DNA of 64,000 bases from an uncultured Pseudomonadales bacterium (GCA_964511175.1 CAZEEI010000002.1:2063-66062); one strand, 5' to 3'. Numbered from the stretch's first letter, positions 3,763 to 52,231 are shown. Notes: generated by a model not told the origin, from the sequence alone. Made by a program: numbers and translations.

Positions 3763-4383
3763 ATGGCCGTAACACTATATCGTCGGCAAAGGCAGATCGT
3801 TGACTTTATTGCGCAGTACATTCAACTTAACAATTATTCGCCGACTTTACAGGAAATTGCGGACGCCTTAGGTGTTTCTTCTTTAGCCACCGTGCACGAA
3901 CATTTGCAGGCTTTGGAGAAAAAAGGAGTGATCCGCCGGGCGGACGGCGCCATTCGCGGCATTGAGTTGCTAGACCGTACTTTCTTGAAAATTACCGAAG
4001 GGATCGATTTACCGATTTTGGGTTACGTGGCCGCCGGCCGCCCGATTGAACCCTACACTGATCCCAATGCTACTTTTAAGGTTTCACCCCAATTAATTTC
4101 CGGCAAACGCCGCGCCTATGTTTTGCAGGTCAAGGGTGATTCGATGATTGAAGATGGTATTTTGGAAAACGATTACGTAGTCATTGAGGAACGAGAAGAT
4201 GTACGCGATGGTGACATCGTGGTGGCTCTCCTCGACAATGGTTTGGCCACCCTTAAGCGTTTCTTTAAAGAAGCAACACGGATCCGTTTGGAGCCAGCTA
4301 ACTCCCGCATGCAGCCAATCTTTGCCACCAATGTTAAGATTCAAGGTCAATGTGTGGGACTAATCCGGAAGTTTGCTAATTGA
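3763..4383 (+). CDS. lexA: LexA repressor (S24 peptidase family)
   Basis: N-terminal winged HTH and a C-terminal S24 autopeptidase domain with the KGDSM serine motif and a downstream lysine (ALLDNGLATLKRF). A GGAGG ribosome-binding site precedes the ATG. Confidence 0.9.
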   Translation: MAVTLYRRQRQIVDFIAQYIQLNNYSPTLQEIADALGVSSLATVHEHLQALEKKGVIRRADGAIRGIELLDRTFLKITEGIDLPILGYVAAGRPIEPYTDPNATFKVSPQLISGKRRAYVLQVKGDSMIEDGILENDYVVIEEREDVRDGDIVVALLDNGLATLKRFFKEATRIRLEPANSRMQPIFATNVKIQGQCVGLIRKFAN

Positions 4384-25552: not shown

Positions 25553-25555
25553 TTC

Positions 25556-26506: not shown

Positions 26507-26512
26507 TCTTTA

Positions 26513-28602: not shown

Positions 28603-28605
28603 ATT

Positions 28606-29688: not shown

Positions 29689-30446
29689 GGCGCTTCACCT
29701 TTTTGGATCAGCTCGTCCAAATATAACTTGTCCCTCAGAGTATCCATGCACTGCCAAAAACCGCTATGTTTATAAGCCATTAATTGGCCTTCCTGCGATA
29801 GACGCTCTAGTGGCGTTTTTTCTAAAACAGTATCATCCGCTTCGATATAATCAAATATTTGTGGTTCCAATACCATAAATCCACCATTAATCCAGCCGCC
29901 GTCCTCTTTTCTCTTTTCCGCAAAGCTATGAATCCGAGAATGCTCTGCTATATCCAACATGCCAAAGCGGCCACCCGGTTGTATAGCCGTTAATGTGGCT
30001 AACCTTTTATTTTTTCGATGAAACGCTAACAAGTTTTTGATATTAAGATCGCTTATGCCATCACCGTAAGTCAACATAAAAGACTTATCGCCAATATAAT
30101 TTTGGATGCGTTTAACCCGCCCGCCTGTCATAGAGTTTAAGCCAGTATCCACAATCGTTATCTTCCAAGGTTCGGCAACATTGTTGTGTACGGTTATTTT
30201 GCCGCCCTGAGAAAAATCGAATGTAATGTCGGAGCGATGTAAATAGTAATCCGCAAAATACTCTTTAATGAAATGTTGTTTATATCCAGCGCAAATAATA
30301 AAATCGTTAAAACCATAATACGAATAAAGCTTCATGATATGCCACAATATGGGTTGATCACCAATTTCAATCATTGGTTTTGGTTTTAAGTGGCTCTCCT
30401 CAATAATGCGGGCACCAAAACCACCAGCTAAAATTACAACTTTCAT
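29667..30446 (-). CDS. rfbF: Glucose-1-phosphate cytidylyltransferase
   Basis: MKVVILAGGFGARIIEESHLKPKPMIEIGDQPILWHIMKLY matches RfbF/DdhA. The true start is MKVVILAGG (30446). Confidence 0.88.
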   Translation of the reverse strand: MKVVILAGGFGARIIEESHLKPKPMIEIGDQPILWHIMKLYSYYGFNDFIICAGYKQHFIKEYFADYYLHRSDITFDFSQGGKITVHNNVAEPWKITIVDTGLNSMTGGRVKRIQNYIGDKSFMLTYGDGISDLNIKNLLAFHRKNKRLATLTAIQPGGRFGMLDIAEHSRIHSFAEKRKEDGGWINGGFMVLEPQIFDYIEADDTVLEKTPLERLSQEGQLMAYKHSGFWQCMDTLRDKLYLDELIQKGEAPWMKWTK

Positions 30447-30492
30447 ATAACTTCCCAGCATTCTGACAGAGTTGAAGGTTAAAATCAAAAGT

Positions 30493-34462: not shown

Positions 34463-34875
34463 GGGGATGCATCGACTTGACGGAAAATGCTCGTGAACAT
34501 CGGCGCGTCGGTTGGCCCACGTTAAGGGTCAAAACAACAAAATTGTCAATACTTTTGACAAAGCCGTTGCCAAGGTTAAGTCTACTTTTAACGAAGTAGC
34601 TATGGCCTTCTTCGGTACTGGTGAGCTCGCTACTTTAAAAATAGCGTAACACTGGTCATTCATTCGTTCGGTTTCAGATACGCCGGCGGATGGGTGAAAA
34701 CCTAGTATCTGTTCAAGACATAGCGGTTTGGCCGCCGCTGGTCCCACGTTTAAGGGTCAGCGCGAGACAGGGTTCGGTTAGTCTTTCCCTTCTCGTCCGA
34801 GCTAAGGCTAAATTACACGCGTAGATGATGTTGACTTGGTTTTTCGGACTCGGGTTCATTACCCGACATCTCCAC
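34463..34875 (+). ncRNA. ssrA: tmRNA (transfer-messenger RNA, SsrA)
   Basis: 5' GGGGATGCATCGACTTGACGG aligns with the canonical tmRNA 5' end (GGGGCUGAUUCUGGAUUCGACGGG). The 3' end TTTTTCGGACTCGGGTTCATTACCCGACATCTCCAC aligns with the canonical T-arm/acceptor (UUUCGGACGCGGGUUCAACUCCCGCCAGCUCCA). The acceptor stem GGGGATG/CATCTCC carries a G3:U70 pair, the alanine identity element. An internal tag reading frame ends ...GAGCTCGCTACTTTAAAAATAGCGTAA (stop at 34647-34649). CCA is not fully encoded. Confidence 0.85.
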
Positions 34876-34876
34876 T

Positions 34877-35380
34877 TTACGGCAAGCCGGCGGCCAGGTG
34901 CTGTCGGCTTTTTTGGAGTCGGTAACGAAAATCTGGATCACGCCAAAGTCGATGAATGGGAGGATCTCCCTGAACCAGGTTCCAGCAACTAACGGTGAAG
35001 TTACGTAATTCTTGATTAGATTGATAATAGGGTGCCGTTGCTTCTAAACCGAAAATAATTTGACAACGCAGGCCACTCACTACTTTTTGAATAAATTCGA
35101 TGGTGGGGTTAGTTTGCAGCGTTTCTAATCGTGAAATATCAGGTTGAGATAGACCGATTCTTTGAGCCAGTGCGGCTTGGGTTAAGCCTTGTCCGATTCG
35201 CTGCCGCCGGATTTGTTGAGTGATTTGCCACTTTAGATCGCTAAAACGGAGTTCATAGAGGATTTGTTCATATTCTTGTACCTGCTCAAGGCGATGGCCA
35301 TATCGCGAACGTGGTTTACCACGTAGAGGGGAAGTGTGTCGTTTTAACATAGCCCCATTTATAGCGTGAAAAACATACAC
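34877..35380 (-). CDS. XRE-family helix-turn-helix transcriptional regulator
   Basis: HTH_XRE-like segment LTQAALAQRIGLSQPDISRLETLQTNPTIEFIQKVVSGL. The stop lies 2 nt from the tmRNA 3' end. Confidence 0.55.
   Translation of the reverse strand: MYVFHAINGAMLKRHTSPLRGKPRSRYGHRLEQVQEYEQILYELRFSDLKWQITQQIRRQRIGQGLTQAALAQRIGLSQPDISRLETLQTNPTIEFIQKVVSGLRCQIIFGLEATAPYYQSNQELRNFTVSCWNLVQGDPPIHRLWRDPDFRYRLQKSRQHLAAGLP
34885..34914 (+). terminator. Putative intrinsic terminator downstream of ssrA
   Basis: AGCCGG...CCGGCT inverted repeat followed by TTTTTT. It sits on the strand opposite the last codons of the XRE gene. Confidence 0.35.
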
Positions 35381-39063: not shown

Positions 39064-39675
39064 CTACTGTTCACGGGCGAAAGTTAAAGCGACTACCTTA
39101 GTGGCGCCCTGAGCGAGCAATGCCTGGCGACAGGCGTTAAGGGTAGAACCAGTAGTCACCACATCATCAACCAGACAAATTTTAGTGTGGTACAGCGGTC
39201 GGGTGGCTTGAAAAGAATGCTGAATGGCGGCGCGCTGCTGGCGGTCTTGGCCGGCCTGGGCTTTAGCGTATACCGTGCGTCGCAATAAGCTGGGATCATA
39301 CTCCGCCCGCCAGCAGCGCGCCAACTCCCGCGCCACCAGTTCGGCTTGATTAAAACCCCGCCATTTGCGTTTTTTAGGATGTAGGGGAACTGGTAAGAAA
39401 ATCGGTTTGCCCTGCCGCCGCCAAAAATCGGGAAAACGCAAAACAATTAGTTGAGCGATTGTTCTGGCGTAGCGATAGCAGCGGCCATATTTAACTAACT
39501 TAACTAAGTCTTGGGCGCTGTCGCGGTACTCCACGGCACTGTAAATCCAATGATCCAAAGGTGGGTGATAGTTCCAAGTTAAGTCATTAAGGTGGTTGAT
39601 GCACAAATAACGTCCAAGCCGGTCGCACGCGGCGCAGCTGGGTGGAAAAATCAGGTCGAACAAATTGATTCGCAT
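39064..39675 (-). CDS. comFC: ComF family protein (phosphoribosyltransferase domain, competence-associated)
   Basis: N-terminal Cys cluster (CAACDRLGRYLC) and the PRTase motif ICLVDDVVTTGSTLNA. Confidence 0.8.
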   Translation of the reverse strand: MRINLFDLIFPPSCAACDRLGRYLCINHLNDLTWNYHPPLDHWIYSAVEYRDSAQDLVKLVKYGRCYRYARTIAQLIVLRFPDFWRRQGKPIFLPVPLHPKKRKWRGFNQAELVARELARCWRAEYDPSLLRRTVYAKAQAGQDRQQRAAIQHSFQATRPLYHTKICLVDDVVTTGSTLNACRQALLAQGATKVVALTFAREQ

Positions 39676-39726
39676 TAGTTTAACGATAGGGCTAAATAGG
39701 GACGTAAATGTTACAATAAGGGTCTG

Positions 39727-39816
39727 GGAAGGGTGCCGGAGTGGACGATCGGGCTTGTCTTGAAAACAAGTGCGGGTGCAAGCTCGCCCAGGGTTCGAAT
39801 CCCTGCCCTTCCGCCA
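39727..39816 (+). tRNA. tRNA-Ser (anticodon TGA), long variable arm, CCA encoded
   Basis: Cloverleaf folded by hand: acceptor GGAAGGG/CCCTTCC, anticodon stem CTTGT/ACAAG with loop CTTGAAA, a long variable arm, T-loop GGTTCGAATCC, and a terminal GCCA. Confidence 0.85.
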
Positions 39817-39918
39817 TTTCGAAATTCAGCAAAATTAGGTATGAGGTTTTGTGTTATGTGATCGTGCTGACTTGCTCCAAAAACGAGTTATTGAGTTTGA
39901 TATACGGTTGCAACCATT

Positions 39919-40293
39919 ATGTTACAATCTACGGATATGACCAATGTTGATAAGAGTCCAGAAATGCGAAGAATCATAGCTGAGGGGCAGAGTTTTCTCC
40001 CTCGAATCAAGGCACAATTGTCTAATTTGTCTTATATCCAGGGTGTACAGTGGAGCAATGGCGGCAGAGATTCGCATTCTTTTTCAATAAGTATCGATCC
40101 ATCTGTACTGAAAGACAGAAAACCTTCTGAGATTAGAAGTGAAATTCAAGCTTCTTGGTCCGACATAGGTGATTGGAGTTTTGGTAGAGTGCAAGGCATA
40201 CCATATAGAGATCCCCAACTAGGCACAGTGATCTTATTCGAACTTAATGTCACACTTTCAAATAGTAATGGTGGCTCAGATTTCATTGGTTGA
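39919..40293 (+). CDS. Hypothetical protein (124 aa) in AT-rich DNA just 3' of tRNA-Ser
   Basis: ORF only; no recognisable motifs; low GC. Confidence 0.3.
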   Translation: MLQSTDMTNVDKSPEMRRIIAEGQSFLPRIKAQLSNLSYIQGVQWSNGGRDSHSFSISIDPSVLKDRKPSEIRSEIQASWSDIGDWSFGRVQGIPYRDPQLGTVILFELNVTLSNSNGGSDFIG

Positions 40294-40432
40294 GCTTCTC
40301 TTGTTGAAATCTAAGAAGTTATTGTGGTTGCTTCTTACCAGTGAAGGACGGAGTTGGTCTACTGGAGACACGATTCTGGAAAAGACAATTATAAGGCCGC
40401 ACAAATTCCAGGCCCAGGTGCTCCGCTCTAAA

Positions 40433-41428
40433 TCATCGGATTGTATTACCCTTACCCAGTAGTGTTATTAATTGATTCCTATCATATGGTGGATGACCAT
40501 AAGCAAAGACATCCATGAGAGCCGGACTGTCGCTGGGAGAGTAACCGGCAAAGTTTTCAACTATTCTAATTAGGTCATAAAGAACGTGATCGATTTTAGT
40601 TAAACTCCATCCCTGCTGCCTGAGCCAGTCAACCAATATTTCCGCCGCTTGACGTCTTTGGTTTTGGTGATCAAAAACACGTCCCGCCGTTGTCGCAATT
40701 GCTGGTTTATTAGGGATTAATCGTTCGAAAAAGTGAGCTAAAACTAATATTTCTACGCCGCGTGCCAGGTGCTCACGGTGGAAAATTACTCGACGATTGG
40801 CGGGGGTAGATGGTAAATAATGTTCTGCATAGTCAAGCCAGCCATAACGGGTAGCTATTGTTTGAGTACTAAGGCCCATCTGTTGCAAAAACGAATCAAT
40901 TTTGTGAGTTAGCTCATGAGCGGCTGTGGCTGTCAAAACAATATCCAACAATTGAGTGCTGTTGAGATGTTGTTTAGACGCGCGCAAAAACTGCTGTAAA
41001 AAGTACAAGTATTTTTTAATGTATGTTTCGCTAAGGGAATAAGCCTGCGCTGTATTAAGGGCAAAAGACAGACCAGTTTCGAGAGTTATTTGTGATGCGG
41101 GGTTTTGCCGCACGACATCAGCTACTACTAATTGATTAATATAGACAAGTTTAACCAAAAGATGTGCTGCCTGGTGATAAGTAGTGCGAGCACGTGAGAG
41201 GATATTTTCTGAATCCGGCAGAGTTAAATTCTGATAGGGGCGATGATTTTTAGGAGATAAAGCCAATTGTTGCCAGATTTGTTTAATTTCGGCTTGATTA
41301 AGCCAGGGTTGATCATTACTAAAGTCGAGCCAATTGTTTTTAACGCAAAGAAATAAAAAATGATAGAGCGAACAATCTCGAAGAGAGGCGGCAACATTTT
41401 CCGGCCTAAGTCGTTCTCTCTTTGACAT
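40433..41428 (-). CDS. Hypothetical protein with HExxH zinc-metallopeptidase-like motif
   Basis: 331 aa with AAHELTHKID in the middle of the protein and no TM helices. Family not recognised. Confidence 0.45.
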   Translation of the reverse strand: MSKRERLRPENVAASLRDCSLYHFLFLCVKNNWLDFSNDQPWLNQAEIKQIWQQLALSPKNHRPYQNLTLPDSENILSRARTTYHQAAHLLVKLVYINQLVVADVVRQNPASQITLETGLSFALNTAQAYSLSETYIKKYLYFLQQFLRASKQHLNSTQLLDIVLTATAAHELTHKIDSFLQQMGLSTQTIATRYGWLDYAEHYLPSTPANRRVIFHREHLARGVEILVLAHFFERLIPNKPAIATTAGRVFDHQNQRRQAAEILVDWLRQQGWSLTKIDHVLYDLIRIVENFAGYSPSDSPALMDVFAYGHPPYDRNQLITLLGKGNTIR

Positions 41429-41500
41429 ATTTTGATATTATACGATAAGTTACAGCGGTTAATTGACAGTCATTCCGCTGTCATACTACAATGAACCTCT

Positions 41501-42262
41501 ATGGAGCATTCTTCCTTTCACACCCTCAAAATTACGATTGCCGGTTTGTTTTTGCTGGCTGCCGGACTAACCGCTGCCTACTTTTTCCCCTGGCAGCAAA
41601 TCAAGTGGGGTCAGTTAGAATTGGCTCCCAGCCGGCTGATTACTGTTACAGGTAATGCTACCGAGCGGCAGCAAAACCAAGTAGCCCAATTTTCAGCTGG
41701 TGTTTCAGCGGTAAACGACGATAAAAATAATGCCTTGGAGCAAGTAAACCAAGCCATGGATAAGCTGGTAGCGGAAATTAAAGAGTTTGGTATTGAGACG
41801 AGTGATATTAAGACCGAAAACGTTAGCGTCTACCAAGGCGAAGAAACCTATTACGAGGATGGCCAACCCAAACAGCGCCCCGGTCAGTGGCGGGTGAATA
41901 ATTCAGTAACGGTGATTTTGCGCAACATCGACCGGGCTTCAGTTTTGACGCAGTTGCTAACCAAGAGTGGAGCGACCAATGTTTACGGTCCCAGTTTTAG
42001 GTTGGATACCGACAGTCAGCCGGGAGACGCTTTGCTGGCGGATGCCATCGACAACGCTCGCAAGAAGGCTGAAGCGATGGCTACAGCCAGCGGCGGTAAG
42101 TTGGGCAAGGTTATTAGTGTGACCGAAGGCAGTGCTGCCAGCCAAGTCTATCCTTTAGCTATGGCTGATGGTCGCGGCGGTGGCGGTGGCGAAGCCATTG
42201 AACCAGGCGCCTCCACGGTGAGCAAGCAGGTAACAGTGGCCTTTGAATTGGTCACTGATTAG
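41501..42262 (+). CDS. SIMPL domain (DUF541) protein, secreted/periplasmic
   Basis: N-terminal TM/signal then ITVTGNATERQQNQVAQFSAGVSAV...DIKTENVSVYQ, typical of the SIMPL/26-kDa periplasmic immunogenic protein family. Glycine-rich tail. Confidence 0.7.
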   Translation: MEHSSFHTLKITIAGLFLLAAGLTAAYFFPWQQIKWGQLELAPSRLITVTGNATERQQNQVAQFSAGVSAVNDDKNNALEQVNQAMDKLVAEIKEFGIETSDIKTENVSVYQGEETYYEDGQPKQRPGQWRVNNSVTVILRNIDRASVLTQLLTKSGATNVYGPSFRLDTDSQPGDALLADAIDNARKKAEAMATASGGKLGKVISVTEGSAASQVYPLAMADGRGGGGGEAIEPGASTVSKQVTVAFELVTD

Positions 42263-42273
42263 TTATACCAACT

Positions 42274-43071
42274 CTATTTAAGTAGGTATCCGCCGTCGAC
42301 CACAACCTGCGATCCGGTCATGTATGACGACATTTCTGAAGCCAAAAACAGCACCGCCTTGCCAATGTCGTCAGGCACGCCCATGCGACCCATCGGTACT
42401 TCCATTTTCGGTGGATCCGGATTCCGCTCGGTGAGTTCTTTTCCCTGCGACTGCATCACCGCGACTCCCGGTGTCATTACGCCGCCTGGCGCAATGGCAT
42501 TGACCCAAATGTTGTCTTTAGCCAGTTCTAACGCCACATTTTTAGTAAACCCCCAAACGCCATGTTTGGAAGCATCATAATGGGCCAGACCAGCTGTGGA
42601 GGGATGCAAGGCGTCAATAGAGGTGATGTTAATGATCTTGCCGCCCTTACCCTGCGCCTTCATTTGTGCCGAAACATACTTAACGGTGAGGAATACACCC
42701 CTGAGATTGACGGCAATAACTTTATCGAATAAATCAGTGGTCATTTCGGCGAGCGTGCTGAATGGGTAGATGCCGGCATTGTTGACCAGTATGTTAATTG
42801 AGCCGAAAGCCGCGACAGTTTGTCCAACCAGATTTTTTACGTCCTCTTCCTGGGAAACATCGGCTTTGACCGACTGAGCCTTAAATCCTTGGGCCACCAA
42901 TTCACCAACCGCTTTTTTTCCCTCTTCATCATTGCGGTTGGCGATCATTACTTGTGCGCCTGCTTCGGCCAGACGGTAACTGATGCCATACCCAATGCCC
43001 AGCGATCCGCCGGTGACAATGGCAGTCTTGCCCGTTAGATCAGTGAGTTGGTTGCGCGGGGTAAGATCCAT
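42274..43071 (-). CDS. Short-chain dehydrogenase/reductase (SDR family)
   Basis: GKTAIVTGGSLGIGYGI Rossmann motif, NNAG, and the catalytic YDASKHGV (YxxxK). Confidence 0.9.
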   Translation of the reverse strand: MDLTPRNQLTDLTGKTAIVTGGSLGIGYGISYRLAEAGAQVMIANRNDEEGKKAVGELVAQGFKAQSVKADVSQEEDVKNLVGQTVAAFGSINILVNNAGIYPFSTLAEMTTDLFDKVIAVNLRGVFLTVKYVSAQMKAQGKGGKIINITSIDALHPSTAGLAHYDASKHGVWGFTKNVALELAKDNIWVNAIAPGGVMTPGVAVMQSQGKELTERNPDPPKMEVPMGRMGVPDDIGKAVLFLASEMSSYMTGSQVVVDGGYLLK

Positions 43072-43219
43072 AAAATTTATCCTTGAATAAATAGTTGATA
43101 ACTAACTTAATTGTATAAAAAAAGGAGGCTGAATTGCAAGTTTAATGATTTAATTTATAATACACTTTACCCATATGAGAAATAATACATTAGAATAATT
43201 AACTCAACGTCTTGCCGCT

Positions 43220-43867
43220 ATGTCTCGGAAAGAAAGTGAAAGAACAGATTTTGTTGAGGGGACAATTGAGGATGTAAGACGATGGCTACAAAAATCGCTG
43301 GGTATTTCCCACCAAGAGCTAGTTTTTAGAAAGGCAGGCCAGGATAGAAGAATCGATTACCAATATCCCTCTGACTACGGGCCGATTCGCGACACACTTT
43401 ATTATGACGGAAGAGCAGTCTTTTTAAGATCTAGGACTACTGGACAAACGCAACAAATTCTGGCAATTTATCCTAATTTTCCTGAACAGAGTGGAAGAAT
43501 TACATTTGAAACTTTAGAGGAATTTACAACTTGGAAAGCACAAAGAGAGAATGCTTTTAGAATAGACTCCACTCAACTTCCTAATAATCCTCAAAGAATC
43601 ATTGAGCAACTATCGGAAATTCCAGTATTGATCGGAGACAAGACTGAAATCGAACAAATGCTAAGTAATGCCACTGGTGGAAAAAGTGATGATTTAACAT
43701 TAGGGGAAAAAGTAGAATATGGAGATTACGGGGGAAATTCGAGAGCAGTGGAAGAACATTTCATGGAAATAAGTTTAGATGGTTTAACTTTATTAAAAAT
43801 AAAAAAAGACTTGAACGGAAACTATACCCTGGATATTGCAGAACTAATTGCGGTGCTTCCGCGTTAG
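43220..43867 (+). CDS. Hypothetical protein (215 aa), AT-rich
   Basis: ORF with an AT-rich upstream region; no known motif. Confidence 0.4.
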   Translation: MSRKESERTDFVEGTIEDVRRWLQKSLGISHQELVFRKAGQDRRIDYQYPSDYGPIRDTLYYDGRAVFLRSRTTGQTQQILAIYPNFPEQSGRITFETLEEFTTWKAQRENAFRIDSTQLPNNPQRIIEQLSEIPVLIGDKTEIEQMLSNATGGKSDDLTLGEKVEYGDYGGNSRAVEEHFMEISLDGLTLLKIKKDLNGNYTLDIAELIAVLPR

Positions 43868-43939
43868 TCTTAACTAACAGAAAAATACCCAAGTGTGTAA
43901 ATTAAAAGAACCTAGTATCTTCGCCGACTAACTGGGAAG

Positions 43940-44341
43940 CTACGGCCAGTTTTTAACTTCGGCTTTGTCTATAGCTATCGCACACCTATTTTCAGCACAG
44001 CGACACGCAAACTTTTCGGTTTTATACCTAGACTGATACTTAGAACAATCACAATCAGCATCTTTTTGGCAAACAACGTTGTAACTAGTTCCTTCTGAAA
44101 GAGGACAAACAACGCGGCATTCACTATCAATTACCGCACTGCTAAAAGGACAGCTGGAACGCATTAAATATTCACCCGGAGGCGGAGGACAAGCCAAAGC
44201 TGAAGGCGTCGGCGTGGTACTAACGCTAGTTTTTTCTACCGAATTGTTAAGTAAATTGAAAAACTGATAATTGCTTAGCCACCAAATCACTAGGATCACA
44301 ACAATAAGAGATAGCACAATTAGAGTTGGGTTTTTTGACAT
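43940..44341 (-). CDS. Small membrane-anchored cysteine-rich protein (133 aa)
   Basis: N-terminal TM anchor (LIVLSLIVVILVIWWL), a PTPS linker, then about ten cysteines in CP/C.C spacing. Confidence 0.5.
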   Translation of the reverse strand: MSKNPTLIVLSLIVVILVIWWLSNYQFFNLLNNSVEKTSVSTTPTPSALACPPPPGEYLMRSSCPFSSAVIDSECRVVCPLSEGTSYNVVCQKDADCDCSKYQSRYKTEKFACRCAENRCAIAIDKAEVKNWP

Positions 44342-44346
44342 TCTGT

Positions 44347-45114
44347 TTATTTTAAGCCAAAATACTCAATCGCTTGAGTTAGTGTGGGAGGGTAGCCCAT
44401 GAAGGCCACCTCATTTCTTTTTAGAGATCTTTCCTCTTTTTGCACCATTAGCATAATAGCTTGCCAAAAGGCATTTCGTAAATTCTCTGAGTTAGATGTG
44501 CTTCTAATAAGTTTAAGTACTTTTTGACGTCTTTCTTTTAGACCTCCTCCTATAGATAGTTCAAACAAGCGATAAATGGGTCGCAAGTTCTCATAGATAT
44601 AGGAGTAATTAGCAGAATAAAACTCGGCAATATCATAGGATGTTTGATTTTTGGGAAATTTTGCTAACAAATTCATGCCAGCTCTAACCAAACTTTCCAA
44701 GGATTCATTGGAGACATCGAAGACCAGATCCTCTCCTTTTTGTTGGAATAAAGACCTATATGTCTTATCTTTAAAAAAACCTGGTGTTAAAGATTGAAGA
44801 CGTTTAATAAAATTTGTGCGGGCAATTTGTTTAAAAGGTAGTGGTCTAGATTTTTTCTCTAAAATATCCAGTAGACTATCGGGAATTTTTGTCGGATCAA
44901 TAAAAAAATTAATATCTATATCGGAATTTTCCCGAGAAGTTCCTTTTACTTGTGAACCTAAGGCCGTTGCGCCAACAAAAGTTTCATCTAACTGTTTCAA
45001 TTTCTGGACCAATAGCTCAAGAGTTAGAAGTCTTTTTCTTCCAATCTCATTAAGACGAAACCTGATTCTTGGATTATCACCAACGCTTCGTTCTGGATTT
45101 CCAGTTACAATCAT
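44347..45114 (-). CDS. Nucleotidyltransferase-domain protein (Pol-beta superfamily, GS-x-SDID motif; MNT/SMODS-like)
   Basis: GATALGSQVKGTSRENSDIDINFFID is the hG[GS]...[DE]hD signature of Pol-beta-fold nucleotidyltransferases. 255 aa, AT-rich, directly 3' of tRNA-Gln. Confidence 0.55.
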   Translation of the reverse strand: MIVTGNPERSVGDNPRIRFRLNEIGRKRLLTLELLVQKLKQLDETFVGATALGSQVKGTSRENSDIDINFFIDPTKIPDSLLDILEKKSRPLPFKQIARTNFIKRLQSLTPGFFKDKTYRSLFQQKGEDLVFDVSNESLESLVRAGMNLLAKFPKNQTSYDIAEFYSANYSYIYENLRPIYRLFELSIGGGLKERRQKVLKLIRSTSNSENLRNAFWQAIMLMVQKEERSLKRNEVAFMGYPPTLTQAIEYFGLK

Positions 45115-45139
45115 ATTTCACATTGTAAATCAAAATTTG

Positions 45140-45210
45140 TTGCCGGGCTAGGATTCGAACCTAGAATAAAGGCTTCAAAGGCCTCTGTGATGCCATTTCA
45201 CTACCCGGCA
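45140..45210 (-). tRNA. tRNA-Gln (anticodon TTG)
   Basis: Folded by hand on the minus strand: acceptor UGCCGGG/CCCGGCA (U1:A72, as in E. coli tRNA-Gln), D-stem GTGA/TCAC, anticodon loop CTTTGAA, and T-arm CTAGG-TTCGAAT-CCTAG. CCA not encoded. Confidence 0.75.
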
Positions 45211-45256
45211 AATCAGGTGTTTATTATAACAGAAATGTTACAATACAGCTCGACGC

Positions 45257-45329
45257 GCCGATGTAGCTCAGTTGGTAGAGCGGCGGTATCGTAAACCGCA
45301 GGTCGTGGGTCCGATTCCCACCGTCGGCT
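45257..45329 (+). tRNA. tRNA-Thr (anticodon CGT)
   Basis: Acceptor GCCGATG/CGTCGGC, D-arm GCTC-AGTTGGTA-GAGC, anticodon stem GCGGT/ACCGC with loop ATCGTAA, and T-arm GTGGG-TCCGATT-CCCAC. Confidence 0.85.
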
Positions 45330-46012
45330 CAGTGCTTCTTTTGCCTTCGTAATTGAGCCGCATCGCGCAGGCGTTTTAAAAGAAGATCAATTGTTTTCGG
45401 TGGAACGTCTCGATCAATTGCTGCCCGGACCCTGGTTCCCAGAGCGTAATACTCAGCATCCGCAGCATCGTAATCGACAAGATGGGCCGTTCCTGCATCT
45501 GCGGAATAACCATCTAAATCTGGCCATTGTTGATCCTTAATAATATGATCCATTTCTTCCCTCCCACCATCACGAAAAGTGTCTTCAATTGACCCTGTCC
45601 AAAATTTTTCATCGTACGCTGTTGATAAGTCGAGAGTATCCGTAGGGTCATATCCGGCAAACTCTTTAAGTATCTGGTTATTAAGATTAATTGCATAATA
45701 TTTTGGTTGCCGGCTCACCTCTGCATACCAGTATGCTTCGTCTTTACCGTCAGGCACTGGCAAGATTATTAGTTGGGGAAAAATGAAGTCATTCGGAATT
45801 TTCTTCTGACGTTTCTTTAGATGATAAGCATCGGCCATTCCCTGAACAAAGCAGTTGATTAGATGTGTAGCAGCATCTATTTCTGAGGTAGGGAAGTTTT
45901 GTTGCCGCAAAACGCTTTCCCAGTTTTTACTCATTAGGTTTAGTAAATCCTGTTCAGGGGAATTAATCAGAATTTCGGTAGTCCGAACACGATCGTCCGA
46001 TCCTCTTGGCAT
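45329..46012 (-). CDS. Hypothetical protein (227 aa) abutting tRNA-Thr
   Basis: ORF only, acidic, no recognisable domain. Confidence 0.4.
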   Translation of the reverse strand: MPRGSDDRVRTTEILINSPEQDLLNLMSKNWESVLRQQNFPTSEIDAATHLINCFVQGMADAYHLKKRQKKIPNDFIFPQLIILPVPDGKDEAYWYAEVSRQPKYYAINLNNQILKEFAGYDPTDTLDLSTAYDEKFWTGSIEDTFRDGGREEMDHIIKDQQWPDLDGYSADAGTAHLVDYDAADAEYYALGTRVRAAIDRDVPPKTIDLLLKRLRDAAQLRRQKKH

Positions 46013-46057
46013 AGTATTCCCATAATACCTTATCCGAGATTCAAGAGCAGTGGCTGA

Positions 46058-46588
46058 CTACTTAAGTATCGCTGCTGCAGCAGTATCGTCACCCTTGGTT
46101 CGTCCGGGTTGAGTTGTACCAACCGGGCCAGTGGCTTCCGTGTAATCCACATCAACTGCCGTCATGGCTGCGGTGCGGACCGGCACTTTGGGAATAACCA
46201 ATTCTTGGCCAGCCGTGAGCATTTGGTCGTGAGCCAGACCATTTTCCTTTTCAATATCGACGTAGTTAAAGCCGGATCCATAGAAGGAAAGGGCAATATT
46301 CCAAGTAGAGTCGCCTGTTTTAACAGCATATTTGCTGGGAAGACCAGCCGGCACGTCTTGTCCTTTATCATTTTTTTCGAGCGTAACCGTGGCGGGCAAT
46401 TCCTCAGTGAGAATCGGTTCGGGCGTAACGTTAGCGGCCACTTCTGTTCCCGCGTTTTTACTTTGTCGCCAATCCTTGATGTAGGAAAAGAGTAAGGCCC
46501 CAATTACCACGACCACCATGGCGCCGAGAATCATTGAAATAATGGACTCACTATCACTAGCGACGGTTACAACTGGCTTTTTCGCCAT
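46058..46588 (-). CDS. LysM domain membrane-anchored protein
   Basis: TM anchor then a C-terminal LysM (YAVKTGDSTWNIALSFYGSGFNYVDIEKENGL...LTAGQELVIP). The start is assigned at MAKKPVVTV (46588), which has an AAAGGAG ribosome-binding site. Confidence 0.7.
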   Translation of the reverse strand: MAKKPVVTVASDSESIISMILGAMVVVVIGALLFSYIKDWRQSKNAGTEVAANVTPEPILTEELPATVTLEKNDKGQDVPAGLPSKYAVKTGDSTWNIALSFYGSGFNYVDIEKENGLAHDQMLTAGQELVIPKVPVRTAAMTAVDVDYTEATGPVGTTQPGRTKGDDTAAAAILK

Positions 46589-46704
46589 AACATACTCCTT
46601 TAGGGCAGACACTTCCAGGCGTTTGATCTGGTTTGATAATACCCTATAGGAAAAAATTAAGCATGGCAAGAGGGAATTATGGGGTATAATAAAGACCGTA
46701 ACTT

Positions 46705-46778
46705 GGTCGCGTGGTGTAGCTGGTTAACACACCTCTCTGTCACAGAGGAGACCGCCGGTTCGAATCCGGTCGCGGCCG
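46705..46778 (+). tRNA. tRNA-Asp (anticodon GTC)
   Basis: Acceptor GGTCGCG/CGCGGCC, anticodon stem CCTCT/AGAGG with loop CTGTCAC, and T-arm GCCGG-TTCGAAT-CCGGT. A TATAAT lies about 15 nt upstream (46685-46690). Confidence 0.85.
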
Positions 46779-46813
46779 CTTAGTGCATGGTTCCTTAGTG
46801 GAAAAGATTTAGG

Positions 46814-47665
46814 ATGAGATTTCACAAAGTTATGGTCAACATTGTCGAGCGGATGCGTCGGTTTATTACCAATGAGGCTGGCGTTAGGACGAGGCACCTA
46901 TTTCGTCTGAATATCGAACCTTTTGTCAGAATTGACGAAATTAAAATTAGGGGTCGAAAAAATTTGACCAAACTACCAGCCGGAAGATCAATTATTTTTG
47001 CCGTTACTCATTTGGATGATATTTCCGTACAAATTTTAGGTTATTGGTTGCTTAAAAATGGTTATGACGTTTTTTTCACACAGCAATCAGCACAGAAAAG
47101 TTTTCGCGAATCACCTCATATGGCAATGACGATGGTAGTTTTAGGCTGGAATCGCTTTTTTTCAATCCAATCCCGAACAGTTAAGGGAATGGTTCAAGGT
47201 AGAATTAATTATGGCGATTATCGCACTATTGCTCAGGCGGCACCCCAGTACTTAGTCATCGCTGCCCACAACCCGATTAAACCTTTCCAAAAGCACGAAC
47301 TTCCCCCTAAAGCCGGTAAAGCCGTACCTCTGACCGCTATTGTGATTAAGGGTATAGTATTGCCGGTGGCAATTCACTTTGAGGGTAGCGGGCCCACGAT
47401 GGAGAAGCTGGCTACCGGTTTTAGGAAACCAGTTATGATTAGTTTTGGTAAACCAATTGATTGTTTTGCTGATCAGGATATTTCCGCTGTGAAAGCTAGA
47501 AATATTGTTCAGCGCCTCCTGATTAGTGGTAATCAAGAGCAGCGTCTTGATCAGGAAACGATGGGGTATTTGAAAAAAATTGGCAACCAAATTATGTCGA
47601 CGTTGGCTTCGCTTCTGCCCGAGGAAGAAAAGGGTAATTGGGAGTCTGGCCAGCAAATGATATAG
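46814..47665 (+). CDS. Hypothetical protein (283 aa), weak acyltransferase-like resemblance
   Basis: GRKNLTKLPAGRSIIFAVTHLDD loosely resembles PlsC motif I, but the H-x4-D spacing is not canonical. Confidence 0.35.
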   Translation: MRFHKVMVNIVERMRRFITNEAGVRTRHLFRLNIEPFVRIDEIKIRGRKNLTKLPAGRSIIFAVTHLDDISVQILGYWLLKNGYDVFFTQQSAQKSFRESPHMAMTMVVLGWNRFFSIQSRTVKGMVQGRINYGDYRTIAQAAPQYLVIAAHNPIKPFQKHELPPKAGKAVPLTAIVIKGIVLPVAIHFEGSGPTMEKLATGFRKPVMISFGKPIDCFADQDISAVKARNIVQRLLISGNQEQRLDQETMGYLKKIGNQIMSTLASLLPEEEKGNWESGQQMI

Positions 47666-47690
47666 TGCTGGTGGGGAGTAAAATAGTGTT

Positions 47691-47945
47691 ATGATCGGAA
47701 AAACAGCGCGAATGGAACGCCACATCGACTTAAACAGGGGCAAAATCACTCAGACAGAATATGATCAGGAGGTGGAGGCGGCAATAGCAGTAGTTTTGCA
47801 ACGGTTTAGTGAAGTTTTAGCTGAGTTCGACAGCCCTGAGGCATTAATTGAGGCCTACAATGATGGAAAAATCACCTACAAAGACTATGTCGATAGTTTA
47901 AGAACCATGGCTCGACAGCGTTTCGAATTATTATTAATACGATAA
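47691..47945 (+). CDS. Hypothetical small protein (84 aa)
   Basis: ORF only. Confidence 0.3.
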   Translation: MIGKTARMERHIDLNRGKITQTEYDQEVEAAIAVVLQRFSEVLAEFDSPEALIEAYNDGKITYKDYVDSLRTMARQRFELLLIR

Positions 47946-48003: not shown

Positions 48004-48591
48004 ATGGATATTTTAATGATAATTTTAGTTCTAGCCGTGGCTTTAGCTTTTTACGTGGTTTTGGTTTACAACGGTCTGCAAACTTTACTGACCCAAATTG
48101 AAGCCGCCATCCAGGAGATTGGCAACCAGCTCAAACGACAGGCCAGCCTGATTCCTAATCTGGAAACTTCGGTTAAATCCTACCTCAAACATGAAAAGGA
48201 TATTTTTACACTGCTAAGCGAAGTGCGCCGCAACGTGGCTGATGCCGCCGCCAAGACAAATACTAAATCTTTGGATAAGGTTGAACAAAGTTTGCAGCAA
48301 ATTATTCCCAAACTGCAGGTGGTAGTCGAAGATAATCCGGAACTGAAGGCTAACGAAACAATCCAACAATTTATGGCCGAGCTGCGTGATACCGCTGACA
48401 AGTTAATGTATTCCCGCCGCGCGGTGATTGATTTAAGCCAGGTGTTTAATCAAAAGCTGATGACTTTTCCTTCTAATCTAGTGGCGAAAGTCTTTGGTTT
48501 TCAAAAACAAGTTGGCTTGGCGACTCCTCTAACCGGTTCACACTTGTCGGTTTCCACTGCCGAAATGCAGGAACCTAAAGTAGAACTATAA
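48004..48591 (+). CDS. LemA family protein
   Basis: N-terminal TM then LIPNLETSVKSYLKHEKDIFTLLSEVRRNVADAA, matching the LemA conserved core (IPNLV.TVKGYA.HE). Confidence 0.85.
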   Translation: MDILMIILVLAVALAFYVVLVYNGLQTLLTQIEAAIQEIGNQLKRQASLIPNLETSVKSYLKHEKDIFTLLSEVRRNVADAAAKTNTKSLDKVEQSLQQIIPKLQVVVEDNPELKANETIQQFMAELRDTADKLMYSRRAVIDLSQVFNQKLMTFPSNLVAKVFGFQKQVGLATPLTGSHLSVSTAEMQEPKVEL

Positions 48592-48598
48592 TGTAGGC

Positions 48599-49495
48599 AT
48601 GTCGGTTTACGCCGCTATTGCGGCTAACAAGCGTCAGTCGTGGTTAGTGGTGGGGAGTTTTTTCCTATTTGTCTCATTAGTGTTGTATGTTTTCCTGACT
48701 ATTTTTGGTTATGACGCGGCGACGATTGGTTTCTTCTTTATTTTGAGTGGTATTAGTTCGTGGGTGGGTTACTGGCAGTCAGATAGGATTATTTTGGGAC
48801 TGAGCGGCGCGCGGCCAGCCAGCCGTCAGCGGGATTTTCATTTTTATACTGTCACGGAAAATCTTTGCCTGGCCGCGCGCCTGCCTTTACCCAAACTCTA
48901 CGTCATCGAGGACACAGCGATGAACGCTTTTGCCACTGGTCGTGACCCAGAACATGCTGCCGTTTGCGCCACCACCGGTCTTTTGGATAGTCTGGACCGT
49001 ACCGAACTGGAAGGAGTGATTGCCCACGAGCTGTCGCACGTCCAAAATTACGATATTCGGCTGATGTCAGTAGTGGCAGTATTGGTTGGCCTAATTGCTT
49101 TGTTAGCTGATTTTTTCCTTCGCTGGGGTGGGGTTGGCCGCCGCCGCAGTAGAGACGATAATTCGAACGGCGCCGTCTTAGTGATTATCGGGGTGGGGCT
49201 AGCTCTATTGTCGCCACTAATTGCCCAGCTGATCCAGTTGGCCATTTCCCGCAACCGGGAGTTTTTGGCTGACGCCAGTGCTGTTAAATTAACCCGTCAT
49301 CCGGATGGTTTGGCGCGCGCTTTGTCTAAATTAAGCCAAGACCGCGAACCGCTGGAGGCAGCTAACAAGGCCACCGCCCATTTATATATTGTGAATCCGC
49401 TGCAGAATCACCACGACGCAGTTGGGTGGTTTGCCGGATTATTTGCGACTCACCCGCCGATTGTGGAACGTGTGGCGCGTTTGCAGGCGATGTGA
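48599..49495 (+). CDS. htpX: M48 family zinc metalloprotease HtpX-like
   Basis: HELSHVQNYD (HExxH), four TM helices, and NAFATG. Classic LemA-HtpX gene pair. Confidence 0.85.
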   Translation: MSVYAAIAANKRQSWLVVGSFFLFVSLVLYVFLTIFGYDAATIGFFFILSGISSWVGYWQSDRIILGLSGARPASRQRDFHFYTVTENLCLAARLPLPKLYVIEDTAMNAFATGRDPEHAAVCATTGLLDSLDRTELEGVIAHELSHVQNYDIRLMSVVAVLVGLIALLADFFLRWGGVGRRRSRDDNSNGAVLVIIGVGLALLSPLIAQLIQLAISRNREFLADASAVKLTRHPDGLARALSKLSQDREPLEAANKATAHLYIVNPLQNHHDAVGWFAGLFATHPPIVERVARLQAM

Positions 49496-49540
49496 TGGGT
49501 AATATTTTGACTTTTGCTCGATAATCAATAGAATGTCAGC

Positions 49541-50035
49541 ATGGCTACTATTGTGCGTGGCAGACAAACGGAAAAGATTCGCCCAGCAACCGGTTGGCAT
49601 CCTGATTTAGATCCACCACCTTTTGCCAATAATGCGGCGGCACGCCAGGCGGCAATTAGTTTCATTGGTAGTATCACCGATATTCCCTCTTTCAATTATC
49701 CTTTTCCTTACGATATTCATTCATTAGGGAAACACACTTTTCTAACACCAGAGGATATTTTGCCAGACGTGAGTATTCGTCAGCGTTTTGCCGCGATTAA
49801 ATTATCCGAAATTAAGCAAGGTGATAAAGTAATCGGTCATAACATTAAATTGCAGTACAGTCCCTACTTTGGGGGAATACAATTTGTGATCAATATTCGC
49901 TATGATGCTCACCCCAATGGTCCAAGCGAGTGGCGATTTGGTATTGTTGAATCCTGGGATGTACGCATTAGTAGTTCCGGTAAACAGCTTACTAAAGCAG
50001 GTGTGGGCCAGCATTTTGTAGTTCAGAGATCGTAA
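49541..50035 (+). CDS. Hypothetical protein (164 aa)
   Basis: ORF only; not a Clp N-domain. Confidence 0.4.
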   Translation: MATIVRGRQTEKIRPATGWHPDLDPPPFANNAAARQAAISFIGSITDIPSFNYPFPYDIHSLGKHTFLTPEDILPDVSIRQRFAAIKLSEIKQGDKVIGHNIKLQYSPYFGGIQFVINIRYDAHPNGPSEWRFGIVESWDVRISSSGKQLTKAGVGQHFVVQRS

Positions 50036-50086
50036 ATCTATCACTCCTCTTGATCGATTGCTAGACTCGTTTTACAATGGCTAGGT

Positions 50087-52231
50087 ATGGACATGTATCC
50101 CGCGCCAGAAGAAAAAAAACTGGCGGATTTCACCACCGATATTACCGCTTTGGCTAAAGAGGGCAAACTTGATCCAGTAATTGGCCGGGAAGCCGAAATC
50201 CGCCGGATTATTCAAGTTTTGTCCCGCCGCACCAAGAATAACCCAGTCTTGGTAGGTGAACCAGGTGTTGGTAAAACGGCGGTAGTAGAAGGTTTGGCTC
50301 AACGAATTATCAACGACGATGTGCCTAGTTCCTTGCGCGGTAAGCGGATCTTGTCACTGGAAATGGCTTCGGTACTAGCTGGTGCCAAATTTCGCGGCGA
50401 GTTTGAGGAACGGCTGAAGAAAGTTATTGAAGAAGTAGTGGGTTCGGATGGCCAAATTATCCTGTTTATTGATGAGCTGCATACCATTGTGGGCGCCGGC
50501 GGGGCGGAGGGGGCAGTGGACGCCGGGAATATGCTCAAGCCGGCGCTGGCGCGGGGTCAATTACGGCTAATTGGTTCGACTACTCTTAATGAGTATCGTT
50601 TGCATATCGAAAAAGATTCGGCCTTGGAGCGGCGTTTCCAACCAGTGTTTATCGAACCGCCTTCGGTGGAGGATACCATCTCTATTCTGCGCGGCCTGAA
50701 GGAGCGTTACGAACTACATCACGGTGTGCGGATTACTGATGATGCCCTCGTAGCGGCCGCTCAACTTTCCGACCGTTATATTCCAGCGCGTTTTTTGCCG
50801 GATAAAGCCATCGACTTAGTCGACGAAGCTGCCTCTGCCTTGAAGATTGAGACCGAGTCTGATCCAGCGGAAATCGATTCGCTCAAGCGCAAAAAAACCA
50901 AGCTGGAAATTGAAGAGAAAGCTCTAAAAAAAGAGTCTTCGGCGGAGGCTAAGCAGCGGCGTGAGGAAGTGCAGAGTGAGTTGACCGAACTGGTCGATCG
51001 GTTGAAAAAACTGCAGCAGCACTGGCGGGAACAAAAGGACTTGTTGCAAACTTTACAGTCGGCGCGCACACAGTTGGAAGGTAAGAAAGCAGAACTGGAA
51101 AAAGCCGAACGTAATGTTGAGCTGGAAAAGGCCGCCGAAATTAAGTACGGCCAGATTCCGGATTTGCAACAGCGCCTCGACCAGGCCCAGGCGGCTTGGA
51201 GCCAAATTCCGGCTAACGAACGTTTGCTCAAGGAAGAAGTAGCGGAAGAAGATATTGCCAAAGTGGTAGCCAAGTGGACCGGCGTGCCGGTGACTCAATT
51301 GGTTAAAAATGAGAGCGAGCGTCTTTTACATTTAGAAGAATCTTTGGCCAAACGGGTGGTGGGTCAAAGTGAGGCTTTGGAAGCGGTGGCCAGCGCCATT
51401 CGTCGTTCGCGAGTGGGGATTGCGGAACCCCACAAACCTTTAGCAACATTTTTGTTTTTGGGTCCAACCGGCGTTGGCAAAACGGAGACAGCGCGCGCTT
51501 TGGCTGAAGTCTTATTTGGTGACGAGCGGGCGATAGTGCGTCTGGACATGAGCGAGTATAGCGAGTCGCACACTGTGGCGCGGCTGATTGGTGCGCCACC
51601 TGGGTATATCGGTTTTGAGGCCGGCGGCCAATTAACGGAAGCGGTGCGGCGGCGGCCGTACGCAGTGATTTTGCTCGATGAAATGGAAAAGGCCGATCCA
51701 CAGATTTTTAACGTTTTTCTGCAAGTGTTAGACGACGGCCGCCTCACTGACGGCCAGGGTCGCACGGTCGACTTTACTAACACGGTGATTATTATGACCT
51801 CGAATGTTGGTTCGGAATTATTGCTGGCGCAAGCTTCGACTAAGGACGATAAAGGAGAACTTCAGGAGAAAATTTGGGATCGTTTGCGCGCTACTTTCAA
51901 GCCGGAATTTTTAAACCGCATCGACCATATCATTATGTATGAGCCCCTTTCGGCCGATCAGCTTAAACAGATTGTTGGTAAGCAACTGCAAGACGTTACC
52001 ACGATGCTTAAAACCCATAGAGTGAATCTGACCATCACGAGTGGCGCCCAGGATTGGTTAGCCGAAAATGGTTATGACCCGGCTTTTGGTGCCCGGCCGC
52101 TTAAACGCCTCATTCAGACAGAGATTCTCGATCAGGTGGCAATTAAAATGCTGGAACGGGAAGATGAGAATAAGCCCCTGTCACTGCAGGCCGATAAGGC
52201 TCCTAAGGGTGTTGGCTTAATATTAGCCTAA
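50087..52231 (+). CDS. clpB: ClpB-type AAA+ disaggregase lacking the N-terminal domain
   Basis: Begins at the linker that follows the N-domain in full-length ClpB (KLDPVIGREAEIRRIIQVLSRRTKNNPVLVGEPGVGKTAVVEGLAQRI). Two AAA modules and a long coiled-coil M-domain between them (ESDPAEIDSLKRKKTKLEIEEKALKKE...). 714 aa. Confidence 0.9.
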   Translation: MDMYPAPEEKKLADFTTDITALAKEGKLDPVIGREAEIRRIIQVLSRRTKNNPVLVGEPGVGKTAVVEGLAQRIINDDVPSSLRGKRILSLEMASVLAGAKFRGEFEERLKKVIEEVVGSDGQIILFIDELHTIVGAGGAEGAVDAGNMLKPALARGQLRLIGSTTLNEYRLHIEKDSALERRFQPVFIEPPSVEDTISILRGLKERYELHHGVRITDDALVAAAQLSDRYIPARFLPDKAIDLVDEAASALKIETESDPAEIDSLKRKKTKLEIEEKALKKESSAEAKQRREEVQSELTELVDRLKKLQQHWREQKDLLQTLQSARTQLEGKKAELEKAERNVELEKAAEIKYGQIPDLQQRLDQAQAAWSQIPANERLLKEEVAEEDIAKVVAKWTGVPVTQLVKNESERLLHLEESLAKRVVGQSEALEAVASAIRRSRVGIAEPHKPLATFLFLGPTGVGKTETARALAEVLFGDERAIVRLDMSEYSESHTVARLIGAPPGYIGFEAGGQLTEAVRRRPYAVILLDEMEKADPQIFNVFLQVLDDGRLTDGQGRTVDFTNTVIIMTSNVGSELLLAQASTKDDKGELQEKIWDRLRATFKPEFLNRIDHIIMYEPLSADQLKQIVGKQLQDVTTMLKTHRVNLTITSGAQDWLAENGYDPAFGARPLKRLIQTEILDQVAIKMLEREDENKPLSLQADKAPKGVGLILA

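Follow-up and report, generated by a model that had tools for sequence, protein, structure and literature searches.

Closest described regions

Several kinds of described region resemble the tRNA-rich stretch at 39727-46779 of the 64-kb window (the whole piece of DNA that was analysed), which contains four tRNA genes and nine protein genes beside comF. They are the tRNA-associated islands, the orphan genes of bacterial genomes, and the comF-adjacent tRNA neighbourhoods.

tRNA-associated islands: The stretch resembles P4-like prophages, integrative and conjugative elements (ICEs), and pathogenicity islands in having AT-rich genes of unknown function directly 3′ of tRNA genes, and in its deviating composition. 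In contrast, it lacks an integrase, genes for mobility or of phage type, and a tRNA 3′-end repeat at a distal boundary. Its blocks comprise one to three genes only, and conserved genes are interleaved with them.

ORFan genes: AT-rich orphan (ORFan) genes are short, have no homologues, and cluster in variable neighbourhoods, and they are a general phenomenon of bacterial genomes. A 2004 study by Daubin and Ochman reportedly provides an example. The genes of the stretch are likewise short, AT-rich, homologue-less, and clustered, but their orphan status is confounded by the extreme undersampling of the lineage, and several of them have leaderless promoters of the host type.

comF-adjacent tRNA neighbourhoods: These come mostly from metagenome-assembled genomes (MAGs) of Patescibacteria. 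The window is like them in having a tRNA-Ser beside comF and further tRNAs over the next few kb. The tRNA-Ser of those loci is downstream of comF and the typical set is Ser, Arg, Glu, and Leu, whereas in the window it is upstream and the set is Ser, Gln, Thr, and Asp. Their intervening genes are large and conserved (46-70% identity, five loci compared), while those of the window are mostly orphans.

The reading favoured here, with somewhat more confidence than doubt, is that a native tRNA-rich neighbourhood beside comF gathered accessory genes that are AT-rich and restricted to the lineage, and whose expression now relies on host signals. The genome would be deeply branching and Patescibacteria-like, and the stretch an ordinary chromosomal region that is mildly unusual.

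Layout of the stretch

The genes are listed below in the order of their coordinates, with their GC content at third codon positions (GC3) where it is distinctive.

tRNA-Ser(TGA), 39727-39816, plus strand: found by ARAGORN and Rfam; has its own extended -10 box, TGTTACAAT, at 39709-39717.
h124, 39919-40293, plus strand: orphan of 124 amino acids (aa), soluble and featureless; GC3 0.33.
HExxH331, 40433-41428, minus strand: putative zinc metallopeptidase-like protein; low GC3; TATAAT 8 nt before the ATG.
SIMPL/DUF541 protein, 41501-42262, plus strand: Pfam match at 5.6e-40; N-terminal hydrophobic segment; core-like GC3 of 0.54.
SDR (FabG or glucose-1-dehydrogenase-like), 42274-43071, minus strand: match at 4e-61; core-like GC3 of 0.56; Shine-Dalgarno-like AAGGA.
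h215, 43220-43867, plus strand: soluble, acidic, featureless protein of 215 aa; GC3 0.28, second lowest in the window.
Cys133, 43940-44341, minus strand: N-terminal membrane anchor and a ten-cysteine domain with a predicted outward orientation; begins 5 nt past the stop codon of NT255.
NT255, 44347-45114, minus strand: 255 aa; GC3 0.27, lowest in the window; starts 24 nt past the tRNA-Gln 3′ end; TACAAT 7 nt before the ATG.
tRNA-Gln(TTG), 45139-45210, minus strand: found by ARAGORN and Rfam.
tRNA-Thr(CGT), 45257-45330, plus strand: found by ARAGORN and Rfam; TGTTACAAT upstream at 45236-45244.
h227, 45329-46012, minus strand: acidic, soluble, featureless protein; convergent with tRNA-Thr, its stop codon overlapping the tRNA 3′ end; TATTAT 9 nt before the ATG.
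LysM protein, 46058-46588, minus strand: LysM match at 9.5e-8; membrane-anchored, with an N-terminal hydrophobic segment; mechanical open reading frame (ORF) to 46669.
tRNA-Asp(GTC), 46705-46779, plus strand: found by ARAGORN and Rfam; TATAAT promoter at 46685-46690.
h283 and h84, 46814-47945, plus strand: on the 3′ side of tRNA-Asp, without a Pfam family; h283 has 277 aa if it starts at 46832.

In the favoured reading, the four tRNA genes, each under its own promoter, would be interleaved with conserved core-like genes (SIMPL, SDR, LysM). Three small AT-rich orphan blocks, namely h124 with HExxH331, h215 with Cys133 and NT255, and h227, would each lie on the 3′ side of a tRNA gene. Their genes would have been acquired, or would have diverged, long ago in a rearrangement-prone, tRNA-rich neighbourhood, and the integration machinery or att scars, if ever present, would since have been erased. 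HExxH331 would likely act as a zinc-dependent hydrolase of a new small family, and NT255 as a nucleotidyltransferase (NTase) that is probably co-transcribed with Cys133, with transcription starting at a promoter that overlaps the tRNA-Gln 3′ end or continuing from tRNA-Gln by read-through. The SIMPL, LysM, and Cys133 proteins would be exposed at the cell envelope.

The four tRNA genes (Ser, Gln, Thr, Asp within 7 kb) are called alike by ARAGORN and Rfam, which place them where a sequence-only reading of the window had put them. They are the sole tRNAs of the window, and an Rfam search at E ≤ 1 finds no RNA in the stretch besides them. Every ORF listed in that reading is present in the sequence. 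The tRNA-Ser is divergent from comF, whose start is 51 nt away, and the comF/tRNA-Ser pair occupies 39064-39816. The 124-aa ORF starts 102 nt past tRNA-Ser, or 120 nt past it if Met7 is the true start. tRNA-Gln and tRNA-Thr are also divergent, and their 46-nt spacer has a TGTTAYAAT box on both strands. The NTase-like gene does follow the tRNA-Gln 3′ end on the same strand, with a spacing of 24 nt instead of the 26 nt first given. The 227-aa ORF, in contrast, does not begin at the tRNA-Thr 3′ end as had been stated, since the gene is convergent and its stop codon (45329-45331) meets the tRNA. The flanks of the stretch consist of the comF operon on one side and a lemA-htpX-clp block on the other, with lemA at 48004.

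The orphans show no paralogy among themselves by all-against-all BLASTP. ORFs of 215-331 codons at about 38-42% GC are not chance products according to the authors' own calculation from the sequence. In the favoured reading, the orphans are real, intact genes.

In the SRR8925802 assembly (Logan), two contigs (L001 and L084/L109) end inside tRNA-Thr at 45257-45330, and a contig of SRR8925769 crosses the site. The break seems to come from tRNA k-mers that different organisms have in common in the assembly graph, rather than from structural variation.

Base composition and gene content

Six of the nine protein genes lack a Pfam match above threshold. The earlier reading, which saw no recognisable housekeeping function in the genes that it listed, had left the recognisable SIMPL, SDR, and LysM genes unlisted. 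The interval from comF to lemA is enriched in genes lacking a Pfam family, with 8 of 11 compared to 9 of 42 in the rest of the window (Fisher p=0.0025).

The overall GC content of the stretch is 0.437 and that of the window 0.464; values as low as this occur in 19% of 7-kb windows. The term AT-rich suits two patches of it and not the whole, which is a mosaic of 0.412 at 39817-41500, 0.512 over SIMPL and SDR, and 0.392 at 43072-46057. Within the last patch, 43072-45138 has a GC content of 0.366 and is among the lowest 1% of 2-kb windows. The GC3 of the six unknown genes is 0.27-0.36, and that of SIMPL, SDR, LysM, and ComF is 0.49-0.56. When compared to the other 47 genes, the six unknowns are significantly lower (Mann-Whitney p=3.6e-4), the mean over all 53 genes being 0.44. 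The six orphans thus deviate in composition, as tRNA-targeting islands do, while SIMPL, SDR, and LysM are core-like. Together, the 8 of 11 genes without a Pfam family and the low GC3 indicate that AT-rich genes without a known function are indeed overrepresented in the stretch.

Low GC3 also occurs in a glycan-synthesis block at 24-30 kb and in a few other genes. This second AT-rich block (24062-30488; GC 0.39, GC3 0.32-0.40) is as anomalous as the stretch. It lies inside a polysaccharide cluster at about 16-32 kb, and comprises genes for a GT2 protein, UDP-galactopyranose mutase, epimerases, and a nucleotidyl-sugar transferase.

Search for signs of integration

The sequence-only reading had regarded the blocks as degraded islands at tRNA 3′ ends, and the corresponding explanation is that they are remnants of up to four phage- or ICE-like integrative elements that lost their integrase and att sites and kept their cargo. 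Every orphan block is directly 3′ of a tRNA gene, GC3 is significantly low, and the genes are orphan, all of which is in line with such an origin. So is a distant Candidatus Doudnabacteria contig in which the LemA, HtpX, Clp, and ComF genes are adjacent, with no stretch of tRNAs or orphans between them.

The specific traces of integration are absent. That no integrase remains was correctly noted: Pfam and NCBIfam scans of all genes at 32.9-52.2 kb find no tyrosine or serine recombinase, and the sole integrase-family gene of the window is a Xer-like one at 6256-7116, 33 kb away. The partial direct repeats of tRNA 3′ halves that att remnants would leave were not found by any of three methods. 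A window-wide k-mer scan with mismatches for the 3′ halves of the tRNAs and the transfer-messenger RNA (tmRNA) gives chance-level 14-18-mers only, and a repeat finder gives chance repeats and the T-arm similarity between tRNAs. Local alignment of the last 45 nt of each tRNA with the 2.8-3.7 kb downstream scores no higher than the mean of shuffled queries.

Searches for mobile genes are also negative. PHROGs matches among the stretch proteins are confined to LysM and weak generic NTase matches, tblastn searches of 50,697 phage records with NT255, h227, h215, and HExxH331, and of plasmids with NT255, find nothing, and six pattern scans of IMG/VR give nothing credible. The idea of degraded islands is therefore left without an integrase, an att repeat, a mobile gene, or a phage, plasmid, or viral match. 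Moreover, two conserved genes of core-like composition (SIMPL, SDR) interrupt the stretch, the blocks are tiny at one to three genes, and several orphans have the leaderless promoter layout of the host. The orientation of the genes weighs little, as only two of the four tRNAs are flanked by core-like DNA on one side and an orphan on the other, a pattern with a chance of about p=0.25. An origin from integrative elements is accordingly considered unlikely. A literature search on islands of Patescibacteria found nothing pertinent.

The Xer-like gene encodes 286 aa with a Phage_integrase and a SAM-like N-terminal domain and resembles XerC/D. It lies among lexA, miaA, a response regulator gene, and ftsH, with no tRNA adjoining.

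Comparison of loci and lineage

Tests on comF-anchored loci show that the tRNA-rich setting is not peculiar to the window. At least four tRNAs within 7.1 kb occur in 15 of 80 such loci, most of them from Patescibacteria MAGs, so that four tRNAs in 7 kb are not exceptional for such genomes. A tRNA-Ser is found at most 500 nt downstream of comF in 18 of 67 loci and upstream of it in none, often followed by a second tRNA-Ser, tRNA-Arg, tRNA-Glu, and tRNA-Leu (L007, L009, L016, L034, L058, and others). The upstream, divergent tRNA-Ser of the window suggests a local inversion. The tRNA-rich surroundings of comF are hence typical in such genomes, and it is the orphan filling that is unusual here. 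On the Doudnabacteria contig (L070, 3923-10672) the order LemA-HtpX-x-Clp-ComF is colinear, with no tRNAs among the genes. The LemA-HtpX-x-Clp order (48004-52231 in the window), with comF near, is common to both.

The lineage itself is sparsely represented. When compared with 185,579 species genomes, comF has distant relatives only (23-39% identity), the best being 39% over part of the protein and about 35% over its full length. SIMPL homologues occur at 16 metagenome loci at 44-57% identity; a tRNA is present on one of these contigs only, and the loci have no further gene in common with the window. Exact-protein look-ups of NT255, h227, ComF, and HtpX lead to short contigs of SRR8925802 and SRR8925769 only, with the same gene order. 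All nine proteins tested, including Clp, HtpX, and SDR, are singletons in 90%-identity clusters among about 15 billion proteins. With two runs only, this indicates that the lineage is represented by one population.

The earlier suggestion of lineage-specific cargo agrees with the low GC3 (p=3.6e-4) and with the search results: no homologue of h227 or NT255 turned up in 5.8 billion proteins, and HExxH331 has one relative at 37% and five remote ones. The genes are not the syntenic, conserved, and compositionally normal set that would have spoken against that suggestion; their composition deviates, and the three searched in the large protein databases are orphan or nearly so.

Such a lineage could also make vertically inherited, fast-evolving genes look orphan, with low GC3 arising from weak expression or selection and tRNA proximity being coincidental. 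The all-singleton clusters fit this explanation, as do the identities of the best comF relative (39% partial, about 35% full length) and the best SIMPL relative (57%). HExxH331 also has remote relatives in other chromosomes, mostly from groundwater, the promoters follow the host layout, and nine other window genes are without a Pfam family as well. In contrast, the GC3 gap is large and abrupt (0.27-0.36 against 0.54-0.56 in SIMPL and SDR), and this single interval has an excess of genes lacking a Pfam family (p=0.0025). The relatives of HExxH331 are found in three unrelated contexts and the SIMPL homologues have no common neighbour, which indicates that gene order is unconserved at any distance sampled. 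This explanation is considered unlikely.

Transcription signals

In 16 of the 53 window genes, compared with 0.88 expected, a -10-like hexamer (TATAAT, TACAAT, or TAGAAT) precedes the start codon and ends 6-9 nt away from it. Among these genes are miaA, htpX, and clp as well as HExxH331, SIMPL, NT255, Cys133, h227, and h124 (from Met7). Examples are the starts at 5253(-), 32879(-), 41428(-), 41501(+), 45114(-), 48599(+), 49541(+), 50087(+), and 52340(+). This suggests that the genome uses leaderless mRNAs widely, housekeeping genes included.

The extended box TGTTACAAT is found exactly three times in 64 kb, compared with 0.61 expected: before tRNA-Ser (39709-39717), over the mechanical ATG of h124 (39920-39928), and before tRNA-Thr (45236-45244). 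Its position over the mechanical ATG indicates that h124 probably starts at Met7 (ATG at 39937), 8 nt after the -10 box, with a leaderless mRNA. Several orphans share the promoter layout of housekeeping genes, and for this reason they look like functioning, domesticated host genes and not like decaying remnants.

By this sequence evidence, about one third of the window genes, housekeeping ones among them, would be transcribed as leaderless mRNAs, which bears on the calling of gene starts in such genomes. A literature search on leaderless mRNAs in the candidate phyla radiation found no pertinent report.

Several points weigh against the view of a native neighbourhood that gathered accessory genes. 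The undersampling is so deep that orphan status may overstate how restricted the genes are, and for h124, h215, and Cys133 this status rests on searches other than those of the large protein databases, which covered h227, NT255, and HExxH331. Acquired genes classically show low GC3, and the geometry fits tRNA-targeted integration, since each tRNA is followed immediately on its 3′ side by an AT-rich gene without a known function. The putative zinc site of HExxH331 is deduced from motif conservation, with no structural neighbour confirming a zincin fold, and the proposed function of NT255 relies on sub-threshold matches only.

The result limits what can be concluded from orphan genes beside tRNAs, as there is no sign of a mobile element here and orphan status is inseparable from undersampling. 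Such a stretch is not to be flagged as an island or a defence locus without sister genomes. Its novelty is modest: it adds a further example of a familiar type of region, together with a small new HExxH family.

The HExxH protein

Family: HExxH331 has a family of seven members, which consists of the protein itself, one relative at 37% identity, and five remote relatives from a profile search of 1.84 billion representative proteins. H171, E172, H175, G185, E219, A222, G224, Y310, Y315, and L323 are invariant in all seven. E219 lies within the conserved block xEHFARGvE, 44 residues past the second histidine, and is inferred to be the third zinc ligand.

Predicted structure: An AlphaFold2 (AF2) model built on the family alignment is nearly all-alpha, with a predicted local distance difference test (pLDDT) score of 82.8 and a predicted TM-score (pTM) of 0.83. 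The HExxH motif is held by the predicted helix 157-183, which is preceded by a short beta-hairpin and helix, and E219 is in the predicted helix 211-235. Foldseek finds no neighbour of the model in PDB or BFVD, zincin or other.

Comparison with gluzincins: HExxH331 resembles the gluzincins, of which M48 HtpX and M41 FtsH are both present in this window, in its invariant H-E-x-x-H on a long helix and a downstream Glu on a later helix. In contrast, it is almost wholly alpha-helical, has no Pfam family and no sequence match in PDB, and has no zincin among its Foldseek results. Alignment by hhalign with the HtpX and FtsH of the window extends little past the motif, with a probability below 2%. HExxH331 is therefore a probable gluzincin-like zinc hydrolase of a new small family, as judged from these sequence features, and membership in a known family is without support.

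Context: The relatives come mostly from groundwater samples. Where their contigs were looked up, the neighbours are RNase J, FtsK, YceG, and AlaRS in one context, DeoC and PfkB in another, and miaA in a third, with no tRNA close by. These ordinary chromosomal, Patescibacteria-like contexts argue against mobile-element cargo. This HExxH...E family is rare, and its confidently predicted structure has no neighbour among known ones; it is a tractable target for enzyme discovery.

The only close homologue (37%; P0003, JGI 3300071358) adjoins miaA on a 3.6-kb contig. The miaA of the window (4360-5253) is 35 kb from HExxH331.

The nucleotidyltransferase-like protein and its probable operon partner

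NT255: The protein has a Pol-beta-type signature, LGS(52-54)-x10-DID(65-67), in which G53-S54 and D65-I-D67 match the pattern hG[GS]x9-13Dh[DE]h. Several independent NTase profiles converge on residues ~20-135. All of them are below threshold, including Pfam Polbeta at 2e-4 (21.8 bits, where the cut-off is 26.9) and NTP_transf_2 at 1.4e-3 (19.4 bits, where it is 21), MntA of NCBIfam at 2e-4, and PADLOC NTase models at 3e-4 or weaker. A phmmer search of PDB and tblastn searches of phage records and plasmids give no match. A single-sequence AF2 model with pLDDT 46 is unusable, and does not confirm the fold.

Comparison with minimal nucleotidyltransferases: NT255 resembles the Pol-beta superfamily enzymes (MNT/MntA antitoxins, KNTase/ANT-type, and AbiEii) in having G-S ... 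D-x-D in its N-terminal third. It differs in that its profile matches are below gathering thresholds, it has no HEPN or AbiEi partner, and it has no homologue in the collections searched. With 255 aa and a helical C-terminal half, it presumably resembles the two-domain ANT/KNTase-like enzymes.

Cys133: The partner gene has no match in Pfam, NCBIfam, PADLOC, PHROGs, or PDB, and none credible in IMG/VR. From their spacing on one strand, NT255 and Cys133 probably constitute an operon.

Defence functions: The sequence-only reading expected defence, toxin, or host-interaction functions here. In a defence or toxin island, NT255 could be an MNT- or AbiEii-type NTase of a toxin-antitoxin pair, and HExxH331 could serve as an effector protease. 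In favour of this, the motif of HExxH331 is conserved, and NT255 has weak matches to MntA (2e-4) and to PADLOC PDC-M05A, PDC-S09, and AbiEii (3e-4 to 0.03). All matches of NT255 are, however, below curated thresholds and represent the generic NTase motif only. NT255 also lacks any histidine, and an Rx4-6H motif of HEPN type is therefore impossible in it. No HEPN or AbiEi gene is next to it, its neighbours being tRNA-Gln and Cys133, and no profile matches one. In PADLOC-DB 2.0, weak NTase-model matches of NT255 (best 3e-4) are accompanied by a negligible one of h227 (E=0.034), and the other eight proteins have none. The relatives of HExxH331 are found among housekeeping genes. A defence or toxin island is regarded as very unlikely, and the sub-threshold NTase matches of PADLOC do not bear out the expectation.

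A further proposal, considered doubtful, is that HExxH331 is the founder of a very rare zinc hydrolase family, and that the neighbouring orphan blocks, especially NT255-Cys133, are lineage-specific envelope or host-interaction modules left by unrecognised tRNA-targeting elements.

Remaining genes and neighbouring features

h124 and h215: Neither protein has a match in Pfam, NCBIfam, PADLOC, PHROGs, or PDB, and h215 has none in phage records or viral contigs. A single 18-residue match of h124 in a 411-aa ORF of a high-GC IMG/VR phage contig was rejected as chance.

h227: No match is found in Pfam, NCBIfam, PHROGs, phage records, or PDB; IMG/VR gives nothing credible.

LysM protein: The likely start is the ATG at 46588, which gives 176 aa and has AAGGAG upstream, and the 176-aa product is also present on Logan contigs. 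The protein probably binds peptidoglycan.

h283 and h84: These genes extend the run of unknown genes to lemA at 48004. The N-terminal part of h283 (46814-47665), which contains "...IRGRKNLTKLPAGRSIIFAVTHLDD...", is by eye like the start of lysophospholipid acyltransferases. Profile libraries and PDB give this resemblance no support, and the HX4D motif is not intact.

tmRNA gene: tmRNA genes are classic integration sites. A tmRNA gene at 34463-34877 was detected by Rfam (77 bits) and missed by ARAGORN. A convergent XRE-type helix-turn-helix gene (GC3 0.36; entry 34463-35380) ends exactly at 34877. The geometry is the same as that of tRNA-Thr and h227, and the k-mer scan gave no copy of the tmRNA 3′ half above chance level.

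Large ORF: An ORF of 1321 aa at 12101-16066 has no Pfam family and an unusually high GC content at second codon positions (0.51), and is directly upstream of a UDP-glucose dehydrogenase gene.

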